UHGV virus genome: UHGV-0311442
Reading direction: 5' to 3' (one strand)
From: a virus
Length of the DNA stretch: 64,000 bases
The notes under the pieces were generated by a model. The model searched no databases, was not told where the DNA came from, and saw only the letters and a program-made list of their open reading frames with translations. Below are positions 40,223 through 41,223 of this stretch, piece after piece; position 1 is the first letter of the stretch, and each line of letters starts with the position of its first letter. A program made the position numbers and the translations under genes.

Positions 40223-40327
40223 GTCTGGGGAGCTTCGGCTCCCCCTATAACCTCTTATGCGCCTCGAAAAGCAAAAAAAAACAAGACACCTAATAATTAT
40301 GAACGAAAGACAACTGCTGAACTAAGT

Positions 40328-40356
40328 AGGGGGTGGTAGCACACCCCCTTTTATTA
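40328..40356 (+). terminator. Rho-independent terminator (plus-strand orientation)
   Basis: Stem GGGGGTG/CACCCCC followed by TTTTATT. Confidence 0.7.
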
Positions 40357-40357
40357 G

Positions 40358-40531
40358 TTAGTAGCGTTCGCTCCTTTTTTCAGTGATTATCTGTGTGAAA
40401 CGGTTGGTGGATGGTTTTAATCGTTTATTCACGCCGAGTTGACTATACTCGTAGATACGTTGCTGTAAATTGGTTTTTGCTGCATACTGTTCTGCAAGCA
40501 TTTTGTCAGTAAAGTAATAACCATTGTTCAT
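40358..40531 (-). CDS. Small basic protein (57 aa), paralog 1
   Basis: ATG with GAGGG 9 nt upstream; protein-level similarity to 40690..40860 despite diverged DNA. Confidence 0.45.
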   Translation of the reverse strand: MNNGYYFTDKMLAEQYAAKTNLQQRIYEYSQLGVNKRLKPSTNRFTQIITEKRSERY

Positions 40532-40596
40532 GATGTAAGCCCTCTTCGTAGGGTGATTAAAGAAATCCATTACGGAAACGTAATGGTGTTGTAAAA

Positions 40597-40693
40597 GGTA
40601 CGCTGCTACAACAGCGTACCCTGCTTTAACTTCTCTATTCGAAAAGTTAAAGCTATGATAAGGGGTGTGGCAGCACCCCTTTATTTTATTTAG
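40597..40693. other. Structured unit B: three hairpins (H3, H2, H1) ending in a T-run
   Basis: H3 GGTACGCTG/CAGCGTACC; H2 CTTTAACTT/AAGTTAAAG with loop CTCTATTCGAA; H1 AGGGGTG/CACCCCT then TTATTTTATTT. Confidence 0.5.
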
Positions 40694-40860
40694 TAGTTAC
40701 TTCTCCTTTCGGTGAAGATCTGTACTCGAGGATTGTTAGAGGCTTTAAGCCTTTTATTTAATCCAAGTTGTTGAACTTCTCTTAGTCGTTCGTTAAACCT
40801 CGCTTGTTCTGCATAGCTGTTTGAGATAGAAGTAAAGATACGTGTATTGTTGTTAGTCAT
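40690..40860 (-). CDS. Small basic protein (56 aa), paralog 2
   Basis: ATG with GAGG 8 nt upstream; shares QLG[LV]NKRLK[AP]S..N.R..QI.TE[RK]RS with paralog 1. Confidence 0.45.
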   Translation of the reverse strand: MTNNNTRIFTSISNSYAEQARFNERLREVQQLGLNKRLKASNNPRVQIFTERRSNY

Positions 40861-40916
40861 GTTAAAACCTCACACGAGTTGGGGATTAAGCTATTACGTA
40901 GCGGTATTAGCGACAA

Positions 40917-41005
40917 GTAGGGACTGTATAGGCAGTCCCTACTGCTTTATCTTCTCTTTCGAAAAGATAAAGCGCCTATGGGGAATGTTGGCGCGCTCCC
41001 CTTTA
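40917..41005. other. Structured unit C, paralogous to unit B
   Basis: H3' GGGACTG/CAGTCCC; H2' CTTTATCTT/AAGATAAAG with the same loop as H2; weak H1' then TTTAGG. Confidence 0.45.
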
Positions 41006-41024
41006 GGTTGTTACCTCCTCTCAA

Positions 41025-41147
41025 CTACCAACTGGGTGTTTCTTGGGTATGCAACGTTGGTCGCGTTATTTCACTAACCCTACGCTGAAACTCAAGTTGT
41101 TTTGTTGACAACTCGTTTAACCGTCGAAACAACAGTTCATGTTTCAT
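41025..41147 (-). CDS. Possible small ORF (40 aa)
   Basis: ATG with AGGAG 7 nt upstream; below the size cut-off of the ORF track. Confidence 0.25.
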   Translation of the reverse strand: MKHELLFRRLNELSTKQLEFQRRVSEITRPTLHTQETPSW

Positions 41148-41164
41148 GAACTTATCTCCTATGT

Positions 41165-41217
41165 TGAATTTGCGAAAATAAATAAAGTGTACCCCTAATC
41201 CCGAAAAGGATTAGGGG
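41165..41217 (-). terminator. Rho-independent terminator, bidirectional
   Basis: Stem CCCCTAATCC/GGATTAGGGG, loop CGAAAA, T-runs on both sides. Confidence 0.8.
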
Positions 41218-41223
41218 TTGCTT

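Follow-up and report, generated by a model that had tools for sequence, protein, structure and literature searches.

Positions 40223-41223 of the window (the whole 64,000-nt stretch of viral DNA that was analysed) hold a hypervariable cassette array of small genes with the middle hairpin of the spacers, h2, as recombination joint. This is the clearest property of the locus, and it was absent from the initial annotation. The array is a real feature akin to known phage gene-shuffling cassettes, not a new class of RNA. The three-hairpin module between the genes (h3, h2 and h1 on the coding strand) probably acts as intercistronic punctuation of small-gene mRNAs and also as a recombination joint. 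As judged by sequence comparison, related phages gain and lose small-gene copies through recombination at h2; the transcribed strand, the 5' and 3' ends and any processing of the module we infer from the same sequences.

Genomic setting of the array

The region belongs to an SPN3US-like jumbo phage, a lineage backed by sequence match and synteny, and lies between a DnaB-like helicase gene on the plus strand and a 271-aa gene on the minus strand. Three paralogous small minus-strand genes form the array, spaced by the module in two full copies and a degenerate one. We favour, with moderate confidence, the view that a minus-strand gene cluster of this phage has its variable distal end here. A low-stringency blastn search of the 1-kb region against GenBank phages gave no match, and only the helicase gene could be aligned to SPN3US-like phages. 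Helicase proteins of close relatives are 97-100% identical, yet the small-gene content at the locus differs.

The upstream neighbour of the array, the 271-aa gene (41224..42039, minus strand), encodes a C-terminal zinc ribbon and is by synteny the counterpart of SPN3US gp196. Its terminator T (41191..41218) has an 11-12 bp stem, T-runs on both strands and a loop that is inverted in relatives. Sequence comparison identified half of an AT-rich palindrome (CTTTATTTATTTTCGCAAA on the gene strand; 41169..41187, minus strand); the full palindrome with two flanking GC hairpins is found at the equivalent position in SPN3US and in the relatives L009, L010 and L012. The candidate early-promoter motif CAGATATATATTACCTAGGTGAGA (42284..42307, minus strand), assigned to its putative promoter class by analogy (PMC7598289), precedes orf47 (42094-42237) and the 271-aa gene. 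It is a possible origin of read-through into the array; the apparent strength of terminator T, which lies between the two, makes supply by read-through uncertain.

At the other end, a GC hairpin with a UUCG loop on the plus strand directly follows the helicase stop codon (40227..40244, plus strand); it has no T-run and is kept in all relatives L006-L018. The conserved motif CTTATGCGCC with a subsequent A9 tract (T9 on the gene strand; 40254..40282) contains a 13-nt repeat, D1, in common with h2. The h3 homolog h3A (40328..40357), a bidirectional terminator-like GC hairpin with a T-run on the plus strand, abuts the stop codon of gene a. These elements had been described as a degenerate unit at 40223-40356. 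Partial homology was borne out (20.4 bits for the covariance model at 40256-40364 versus 106-117 bits for units B and C), but the segment is made up of three elements: the hairpin at the helicase 3' end, a conserved TTATGCG/A-tract segment and, behind the last small gene, a terminator that would act in both directions.

Small genes and their proteins

Gene a (40358..40531, 57 aa) and gene b (40690..40860, 56 aa), both on the minus strand, have Shine-Dalgarno sequences and share 39% identity, in agreement with their earlier description as paralogs with good ribosome-binding sites. The pN/pS ratio is 0.19 for gene a over 8 alleles and 0.19 for gene b, and ratios of 0.04-0.21 for genes a, b, x and y indicate purifying selection. 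The initial annotation had listed three small ORFs, of which a and b are real genes by this measure; the third, gene c (41025..41147, minus strand), is a truncated allele of 40 aa: compared with the 52-aa form of relatives it has a 16-nt deletion that shifts the frame, and its 4 alleles differ by 0 synonymous and 3 nonsynonymous changes. Exact or near homologs of gene a occur across many assemblies, and the identical gene b protein (P0007) is listed with 90 contigs. At least five paralog types make up the family; their identity of 13-40% points to old duplications.

The small proteins (~50-60 aa) are each predicted to consist of one long helix and a basic tail. An AF2 model of protein b comprises one helix and a disordered basic tail (pLDDT 69.5), which is too simple for a meaningful fold search. 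No functional match was detected in Pfam, NCBIfam or PHROGs. SPN3US gp194 and gp195 (phrog_18219) occupy the equivalent syntenic place to the small genes of the window. The phrog_18219 profile matched gp194/gp195 with an E value of 1e-27 and the full-length c allele (L135/L005) with only 0.11; hhalign of the small proteins against the gp194/195 group gave a probability of 75% and an E value of 2.5e-5 over 15 columns.

Architecture of the hairpin module

The module is 95-120 nt long and occurs as one copy between successive genes. Unit B comprises h1 (40596-40622), h2 (40623-40653) and h3 (40660-40681) with a T-run to 40691, and unit C comprises h1 (40916-40943), h2 (40944-40973) and h3 (40980-41001). 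Both units, found where the initial annotation had placed them, fold far better than shuffled sequences on either strand (z -5.8 to -9.1; 0/200 shuffles), and the region holds 10 terminator-like hairpins versus 1.6 expected.

Folding and sequence comparison characterised the individual hairpins. The GC-rich h1 of unit B (minus strand) is supported by covariation and opens the leader that travels with gene a. The h1 loop of unit C (TATAGG, minus strand) is exactly inverted in relatives. Directly adjoining h1, h2 is 30-31 nt long, with a 13-bp AU-rich stem, a 4-5-nt loop and one C.A on the plus strand that is a U.G wobble on the minus strand. The conservation of this middle hairpin had been recognised before, with a stem of 9 bp and a loop of 11 nt that are both revised here. 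In unit B the sequence-conserved h2 has the loop GAAUA and the fixed U.G on the gene strand and is a crossover zone; the copy in unit C is a T/A stem variant with a GAAA loop on the gene strand. The h3 of unit B with its plus-strand T-run (40660..40691) is bidirectional terminator-like and directly follows the stop codon of gene b, and that of unit C is weakened by one wobble and one mismatch compared with L276. Each start codon is separated from its h1 by a fourth hairpin, hx. The hx in the gene a leader (40567..40586, minus strand) has a tail rich in T on the gene strand; that of gene b (40890..40911, minus strand) has a perfect 8-bp version in L262. The distance from h2 to the next start codon is fixed, with a leader of 82-91 nt that contains h1, hx and the Shine-Dalgarno sequence.

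A permissive Rfam scan returned no family at threshold, the best hits being RatA (25.2 bits; threshold 49) and StyR-143 (21.5 bits; threshold 176), and ARAGORN found no tRNA or tmRNA.

Covariation and strand

For structure comparison we used 31 distinct module copies out of 40 related genomes, which together with covariance-model matches establish that the unit is conserved in relatives. In these 31 units 98% of pair cells are paired, versus 45-59% when the partners are slid against each other. Double-sided changes affect 8 of 11 pairs in h1 and 4 of 8 in h3; h2 is mostly invariant, having stayed nearly unchanged while h1 and h3 drifted. The compensatory A-T to T-A change in h2, first noticed within the window, is real and recurs among the relatives (AU 20, UA 4, GU 2 and A.A chimeras 5). 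A duplex operator for a dimeric regulator is unlikely, because the h2 loop length varies (4-5 nt) and its arms show compensatory changes.

Several features differ between the strands. The U.G wobble of h2 is fixed in 31/31 distinct units and can pair only on the gene strand. Wobble-type states in h1 and h2 favour the gene strand by 9 to 2, and overall by 12 to 5 (p = 0.07), a statistic (p 0.03-0.07) that is suggestive and in which the fixed U.G is one event. The gene strand is the stabler one in 26/31 units, with a mean gain of 4.7 kcal/mol. The asymmetric centre of h2 shows 0 inversions in 66 units, and the loops of h1, h3 and T show at least 12 exact inversions in relatives. The fixed gene-strand U.G, the wobble bias, the stability and the lack of h2 inversion favour elements of a minus-strand mRNA. 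Of the two readings proposed initially, structured leader or intercistronic mRNA elements are thus favoured by the strand evidence, and plus-strand small RNAs are disfavoured.

The latter would be RNAs of ~100 nt spanning h1-h2-h3 and ending at the h3 T-run, made from their own promoter or cut from helicase read-through; we judge them improbable. The expected plus-strand hairpin with T-run at the unit end is present, and the two terminator matches that score best in each unit, h3 with TTTATTTTATTT behind it and h1 with a T-rich arm behind it, are both on the plus strand. Short terminated RNAs are made by giant phages (PMC11512511), and TATG is the core of the phiKZ late promoter (PMC7598289); a plus-strand TATG-containing motif follows the helicase hairpin in nearly all relatives and stands just upstream of unit 1 in L002, L003, L005 and L135. 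However, units B and C have neither a TATG nor a sigma-70 site upstream on the plus strand, and no recurrent promoter for such RNAs was found upstream of the units. Read on the plus strand, every copy of h2 has a C.A mismatch (one variant would have three), and this strand is the less stable in 26/31 units. Lying between genes, the units would not be antisense to small-gene coding sequence.

The loop inversions are the product of DNA-level template switching within these palindromes, which can yield 'compensatory' changes without RNA selection. This bears on the possibility that the module is a neutral by-product, in which tail-to-tail intrinsic terminators were duplicated and h2 arose from pairing of their complementary T and A tracts. 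Its identity would then be kept by recombination or gene conversion and the covariation would come from template-switch palindrome correction, of which the at least 12 exact loop inversions are the trace. At the homologous position SPN3US, L009, L010 and L012 have a hairpin, TTTATTTATTTTC-GCAAA-GAAAATAAAAG and another hairpin; the covariance model matches SPN3US there with 21.3 bits. The flanking hairpins of SPN3US and L012 each have a UUCG loop on the strand to be terminated, and the gene-strand and opposite-strand terminators of SPN3US share complementary T and A tracts. Both h2 arms are T-rich on their own strand, as are the tails of h1 and h3, and crossovers in h2 would themselves homogenise its sequence. 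T tracts, however, give no reason for 13 bp of exact complementarity that extends to G, C and A positions, for a wobble kept in 31/31 units, or for a centre that never inverts beside loops that invert freely; and while the duplications are old (13-40% identity), h2 is near-invariant and h1 and h3 have drifted. We regard a neutral origin as unlikely.

Transcription signals

The terminator scan called h3A, the h3 of unit B, the h1 of unit C and T, whereas h2 lacks a T tail. With a GC stem, a short loop and an adjacent T tract, h3 is a predicted intrinsic terminator, and it lies within 35-39 nt of the upstream stop codon. In the 31 units the 10-nt tail of h3 contains on average 4.5 T on the gene strand and 5.2 on the opposite strand; for h1 the values are 2.3 and 5.2. 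T-runs are strongest behind h3 and h1 on the plus strand, which is no less compatible with termination on that strand.

For the small genes we identified no promoter. A consensus scan of units B and C revealed no sigma-70 site, and the units contain no copy of the candidate early-promoter motif of the phage and no gene-strand TATG. On the plus strand TATG is present at roughly chance frequency by our own estimate. The element TTTTTACAAC recurs after some terminators and also upstream of genes a and x, with five intergenic gene-strand copies according to our placement against the ORF map; as a promoter element it is no more than a lead, being not enriched overall (15 matches versus 11 expected). 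An early promoter inside hx was considered and dropped, since L003 (CCACCACG) lacks the ATTAC core of this hairpin.

On the reading as intercistronic punctuation, the coding-strand order would be stop codon, A-rich tract, GC hairpin h3 with its T-rich tail, then h2 and then h1. As a bidirectional intrinsic terminator or attenuator, h3 would stop or weaken the upstream cistron and would also block antisense transcription arriving from the convergent helicase gene. The sequence-invariant 13-bp AU-rich h2, with its fixed U.G and purine-rich 4-5-nt loop, may be an oriented sequence-specific signal, and h1 would open the leader (h1, hx, Shine-Dalgarno) of the next gene. The hairpins would act in the mRNA by attenuation and by protection of 3' and 5' ends. 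As the only long identical stretch between diverged cassettes, h2 would be the place where homologous recombination deletes or reassorts cassettes among co-circulating phages.

Distribution and recombination

The exact module pattern was found in only 4 IMG/VR genomes, each time at this locus. In the phage sequence of the window the covariance model found only units B and C, and in a complete 221.9-kb relative it gave one match of 124.6 bits, the next (28.5 bits) being without h2. Genomes carry about 1-3 copies (1-2 full) at a single locus. A genome-wide promoter or terminator element was rejected, as motif and covariance model match this locus only. A scan of IMG/VR and the metagenome collection with a 16-nt pattern gave chance matches only; loci L020-L219 were counted as noise, with the exception of L135.

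Among 40 arrays we distinguished 12 architectures, some of which rest on short-k-mer metagenome assemblies and only 2/12 on Logan contigs alone; all are order-preserving subsets of c-b-y-a-x. The left flank of the module segregates with the upstream gene and the right flank with the downstream gene: h3 is linked to the former and h1 to the latter. As 10/10 pairings are present, this linkage places crossovers within h2. Five units have a chimeric h2 with an A.A mismatch. In the natural variant L005, gene x is kept and the upstream h2 and h3 are absent.

Such crossovers could also reflect a DNA-level oriented site, with h2 as a hairpin or cruciform that serves as an integron-like recombination site or as a promoter or operator for a non-canonical RNA polymerase. 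Every cassette junction lies within h2, chimeric copies exist, and h2 is conserved as a sequence besides its structure and is strictly oriented. The non-virion RNA polymerase (nvRNAP) of AR9 is able to use single-stranded promoters (PMC7598289), but h2 does not look like the candidate early-promoter motif, nor like TATG. Integron cassettes are similar in that promoter-poor small genes of the same orientation are each followed by an imperfect palindrome that joins cassettes. Integron attC sites are about 57-141 nt long with conserved RYYYAAC and GTTRRRY cores, and stand with an adjacent tyrosine recombinase, IntI, and attI. The h2 arms CTTTAAC...GTTAAAG are one base off this consensus, missing the outer position, and the common CTTTATC/GATAAAG variant disrupts the AAC/GTT triplets, so that the core triplets are not conserved; with 30-31 nt, h2 has half the minimum attC length. 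Moreover, 0/225 annotated features of the complete relative NZ_CP173450.1 are named integrase or recombinase (by annotation only), and several deletions have breakpoints outside h2 (a GTTGAA microhomology; the 16-nt deletion). Gene order is never permuted and the module has not spread to other loci, so plain homologous exchange and deletion suffice. We therefore rejected an integron attC array, and a DNA-level site of either kind is improbable.

Comparison with known elements

The module most resembles the PeSL (promoter-early stem-loop) elements of T4-type phages. Both are short conserved intergenic motifs that begin at the upstream stop codon within AT-rich sequence, contain a GC stem-loop terminator and precede a small gene of unknown function, and in both, recombination between copies explains insertions, deletions and replacements among near-identical phages (PMC2839356; PMC4122927). 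The module shares with PeSL the terminator-like hairpin near the upstream stop and the position of copies at indel and replacement boundaries. By contrast, PeSL has a sigma-70 early promoter, whereas the module has no recognisable one, and PeSL reaches ~50 copies per genome in several hyperplastic regions compared with 1-3 copies at one locus (PMC2839356; PMC4122927). Unlike PeSL, the module stands between paralogs of a single gene family and is built of three to four hairpins, one of them AU-rich and invariant in sequence. Excised mini-circles are a further PeSL hallmark. With no sigma-70 early promoter and no tens of copies over several regions, it is not a PeSL member. The initial claim of an undescribed regulatory module holds in that no Rfam family matches, but the module is close to these known shuffling cassettes. 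The phages here do not use host sigma-70 promoters, and the T4 PeSL model cannot apply to them directly.

The bidirectional or paired terminators of phiKZ and 201phi2-1 likewise consist of GC hairpins with 4-6-nt loops and T-rich tails after stop codons, and would act both ways between convergent transcription units, as the module would (PMC11512511). Terminators, however, need no invariant middle hairpin with a fixed wobble and leave the fixed h2-to-start spacing of 82-91 nt unexplained. Other intercistronic hairpins, the RNase III sites of T7 and the REP elements of E. coli, set differential mRNA stability or processing. The module resembles them as a set of stable, structure-conserved intercistronic hairpins placed to protect the upstream 3' end and the downstream 5' end. 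It differs in that the 13 bp of h2 are short for RNase III, and in its confinement to one gene family in place of a dispersed distribution.

Implications for the phage group

If the module were only a terminator pair, the finding would be ordinary. It is doubtful, at the other extreme, that h2 is an oriented sequence-specific hairpin signal defining autonomous small-gene cassettes in a nucleus-forming jumbo phage. Such a signal could be an RNA operator or a processing site that a phage factor recognises, perhaps the small basic proteins, or else it could serve the non-canonical machinery of the phage as a hairpin-type promoter or a recombination site. If this were so, the array would hold an arsenal of early small proteins under active, integron-like shuffling and would not be a passively decaying tandem duplication. 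For this group of phages, in which middle and late regulatory signals are poorly characterised, the invariant, oriented h2 is a candidate cis-element.

The small proteins vary between phages but are subject to purifying selection, which makes them candidates for a role in host interaction. Of the at least five paralogous small proteins, close jumbo phages carry different sets at this locus, with a 30-nt hairpin as the reassortment joint. With 31 distinct units in 40 genomes, the locus provides a compact, replicated natural example of accessory small-gene turnover.

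Identity of the phage and its relatives

At the DNA level, the helicase gene (38660-40222, plus strand) shares ~82% identity with its DnaB-like counterpart in Salmonella phage SPN3US and related phages, and the gene order is shared with SPN3US: major head protein, small gene, opposite-strand helicase, two 48-aa ORFs (gp194, gp195) and gp196. This similarity and gene order indicate that the window derives from a jumbo phage of the SPN3US type, a group whose members encode their own virion and non-virion RNA polymerases (PMC7598289). Searches with the region downstream of the helicase gene revealed no alignment to any deposited phage, low stringency included. 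Close relatives, with helicase proteins 97-100% identical, were found as 150-228-kb contigs in IMG/VR, ENA, NCBI and Logan assemblies. Two further relatives are closed database entries labelled circular 'plasmids', one from an E. coli isolate from urine and the other from an Enterobacter ludwigii isolate from a gull; these records (NZ_CP173450.1, L295 and L297-L301; NZ_CP134650.1, L296) are complete genomes of this lineage (221.9 kb and 222.4 kb), annotated as hypothetical for nearly all genes, which suggests phage carried in bacterial cultures, or mislabelling.

Hairpin structure of the units

Sequence checks and folding confirmed the hairpins that the initial annotation had placed in units B (40596-40691) and C (40916-41001), each consisting of hairpins h1, h2 and h3. 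Both units are far more stable than shuffled sequences on both strands (z -5.8 to -9.1; equally stable shuffles 0/200), and the region holds 10 terminator-like hairpins where 1.6 are expected. The middle hairpin, h2, is present, but its stem had been drawn too short: it comprises 13 bp (GCTTTAACTTCTC/GAAAAGTTAAAGC) with a loop of 4-5 nt, and one position that is a C.A mismatch on the plus strand is a U.G wobble on the minus strand. A third, 'degenerate' unit proved only partly homologous, scoring 20.4 bits with the covariance model versus 106-117 bits for the true units; it is made up of the hairpin at the helicase 3' end, a conserved TTATGCG/A-tract segment and an h3-homologous terminator.

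Extraction of the array from terminator T of the 271-aa gene (41191-41218) to the helicase hairpin in 40 sources yielded 66 units, 31 of them distinct and full-length. In the alignment of these 31, standard pairs occupy 98.0% of pair cells, compared with 45-59% for slid partners and 88.9% for column shuffles. Eight of the 11 h1 pairs and four of the eight h3 pairs have changed on both sides, and 7 of the 13 h2 pairs are invariant; h1 and h3 are therefore conserved as structure and h2 as sequence. The compensatory A-T/T-A change reported for h2 recurs among relatives (AU 20, UA 4, GU 2), and five further copies are A.A chimeras with arms from different variants.

The small genes

The two larger ORFs on the minus strand, a (40358-40531) and b (40690-40860), are paralogs with 39% identity, as originally proposed. 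The third, c (41025-41147), belongs to the same family, but as an allele with a 16-nt deletion relative to the 52-aa form of relatives. A profile search with the small ORFs revealed 60 related proteins in public assemblies, falling into at least five paralog types (a, b, c, x, y), with a sixth, z, in some arrays. All types share the core (F/L)xQR(hydrophobic)xE(hydrophobic), followed in most by LG(L/V). The pN/pS of orthologous alleles is low (a 0.19, b 0.19, y 0.21, x 0.04), which argues that these four ORFs are translated from the window's minus strand under purifying selection; the truncated c allele of the window shows no synonymous and three nonsynonymous changes. SPN3US gp194/195 (phrog_18219) occupy the same position, and the two groups match weakly at the profile level (hhalign probability 75%, E 2.5e-5). 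No library searched assigned a function to the small proteins. The AlphaFold model of b consists of one helix (residues 2-35) and a disordered basic tail.

Fused or read-through small proteins also occur in public assemblies (P0001, P0004, P0008, P0011, P0015, P0016, P0023, P0050), among them x preceded by the start of a, c ending in the C-terminus of y, and a extended into the spacer. Chimeric ORFs arise repeatedly by deletion at this locus.

Reassortment of cassettes at h2

The 40 arrays display 12 architectures (U, one module copy): c-U-b-U-a in the window, and U-y-U-x, U-a-U-x, c-U-b-x, c-U-x, U-b-U-y, U-y, U-y-U-a, c-U-a, c-U-y-U-a, U-b-U-x and U-x. Each is an order-preserving subset of c-b-y-a-x, and no permuted order was found among the 40. 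Ten of the 12 are backed by non-Logan assemblies or closed records, so assembly artefacts cannot explain the pattern. In every case the A-tract and h3 agree with the upstream gene, and h1, the extra hairpin before the start codon (hx) and the 82-91-nt leader agree with the downstream gene; each of the ten upstream|downstream pairings was seen (c|a, c|b, c|x, c|y, b|a, b|y, b|x, y|a, y|x, a|x). This places the exchanges inside h2, and the A.A copies are their direct trace. Other deletions have breakpoints outside h2, and several of the resulting fused ORFs are in the protein database. Ordinary homologous recombination on the sole shared 30-nt identity is enough for the pattern; the annotated features of the complete relative include no integrase.

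Strand and orientation of the module

The coding (minus) strand is favoured on four counts. All 31 distinct units have the U.G pair of h2. The remaining wobble-type states of h1 and h2 point to the gene strand in nine cases and to the opposite strand in two (12 and 5, p = 0.07, with h3, which aligns less reliably). The stem of one h2 variant, CUUUAACU-UUUUU-GGGA-GAAGG-AGUUAAAG, survives only via three G.U pairs on the gene strand. Finally, the gene strand is the stabler in 26/31 units, by a mean of 4.7 kcal/mol that comes almost wholly from h2. We consider plus-strand small RNAs, one of the two interpretations initially offered, unlikely.

The T-rich tails count against a minus-strand reading, the plus strand being at least as good: there the 10 nt behind h3 and those behind h1 each contain 5.2 T on average, versus 4.5 (h3) and 2.3 (h1) on the gene strand. 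Plus-strand termination appears to be a real property of the module, and the predicted terminators would block antisense read-through from the convergent helicase gene. That the module is a neutral pair of tail-to-tail terminators agrees with these tails and sits less easily with the conserved sequence of h2; we rate its probability as low.

At least 12 pairs of 6-nt loops from h1, h3 and T (window 40605-40610, 40927-40932, 40668-40673, 41201-41206; same hairpins in L002-L296), such as TATAGG/CCTATA and TTGTAG/CTACAA, are exact reverse complements in different genomes; the hairpins concerned are perfectly paired GC hairpins. Inversion of hairpin loops at the DNA level is frequent, presumably through template switching. 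The asymmetric centre of h2 is inverted in 0 of 66 units, under a search pattern able to catch inversions, so h2 keeps a constant orientation with respect to the genes. An oriented site acting at the DNA level would fit this constancy; we consider such a site unlikely.

Promoters and expression context

Minus-strand genes of the window are repeatedly preceded by the intergenic motif CAGATATATATTACCTAGGTGAGA or a variant of it, with three matches of ≤3 mismatches (0 expected; 42284-42307, 14764-14787 and 50538-50561, all minus strand) and looser copies, found by eye, between genes at 9423-9495, 16135-16262 and 35635-35814 (-). The early promoters of these jumbo phages are described as AT-rich (PMC7598289), as is this motif, which by analogy probably marks the phage's early (virion RNA polymerase) promoters. 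Since the copy at 42284-42307 (-) precedes orf47 (42094-42237), the 271-aa gene, T and then the array, the small genes may be fed by read-through of an early operon. A promoter scan and an early-motif scan recognised no promoter inside the units.

Other short signals were noted. Just past the helicase stop, after the 3' hairpin, (T)TTATG(C/T)GTCC and an A8-A10 tract (40254-40282) are kept in most relatives down to ~75% helicase identity (L006-L014, L018); in SPN3US and L009 a small hairpin carries this TTATG in its loop. Four relatives (L002, L003, L005, L135) carry plus-strand CTTTATG(T/C)G in a hairpin loop upstream of unit 1, with a covarying stem (GTCAACA/TGTTGAC versus GCCAACG/CGTTGGC). 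The phiKZ late promoter core is TATG (PMC7598289). The helicase gene and its divergent neighbour, the minus-strand gene lying upstream of the one for the major head protein, are only 13 nt apart (38646/38660); the promoters of both would have to be located within adjacent coding sequence, in keeping with very short promoter signals. TTTTTACAAC or a one-mismatch variant (8075-8084, 13610-13619, 22802-22811, 40588-40597, all minus strand) is found after the T-runs of terminators in several intergenic regions and, upstream of genes a and x, after h1; window-wide it is not enriched (15 matches, 11 expected) and is concentrated in gene-strand intergenic DNA.

Distribution and likely ancestor

The h2 pattern was detected in 4 of 2.9 million IMG/VR contigs, always at this locus. 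Covariance-model scans found only the two units in the 64-kb window and one match (124.6 bits) in the complete 221.9-kb relative. As the module is confined to one locus, a genome-wide promoter or terminator motif is ruled out. The next best match in that relative (28.5 bits; L297 37731-37821, plus strand) consists of two GC hairpins with no h2 between them. Its h3-like GGGGTG/CACCCC hairpin, adjoining a second hairpin of mixed composition (AACGUCGU/ACGACGUU), shows that hairpins of the flanking type are also used at other genomic positions.

Weak matches (21.3 and 18.1 bits) fall in the homologous intergenic regions of SPN3US, where the order after gp196 is terminator, AT-rich palindrome (TTTATTTATTTTC-loop-GAAAATAAAAG), GC hairpin and gp195. 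This stretch looks like the ancestor of the module. Half of an SPN3US-type palindrome is kept in the window at 41169-41187, and the wider group has 0, 1 or 2 small genes at this position.

The module among known systems

The initial observation of hairpin units with small ORFs is confirmed; its interpretation is supported in part only. The closest described system is the promoter-early stem-loop (PeSL) cassette of T4-type phages. PeSL cassettes have a promoter and a genome-wide distribution, and the module has no recognisable promoter and sits at one locus; the array is therefore a variant beside PeSL-like cassettes. On balance we lean modestly towards a module that would punctuate the small-gene mRNAs between cistrons and would also form the joint at which a hypervariable cassette array recombines.
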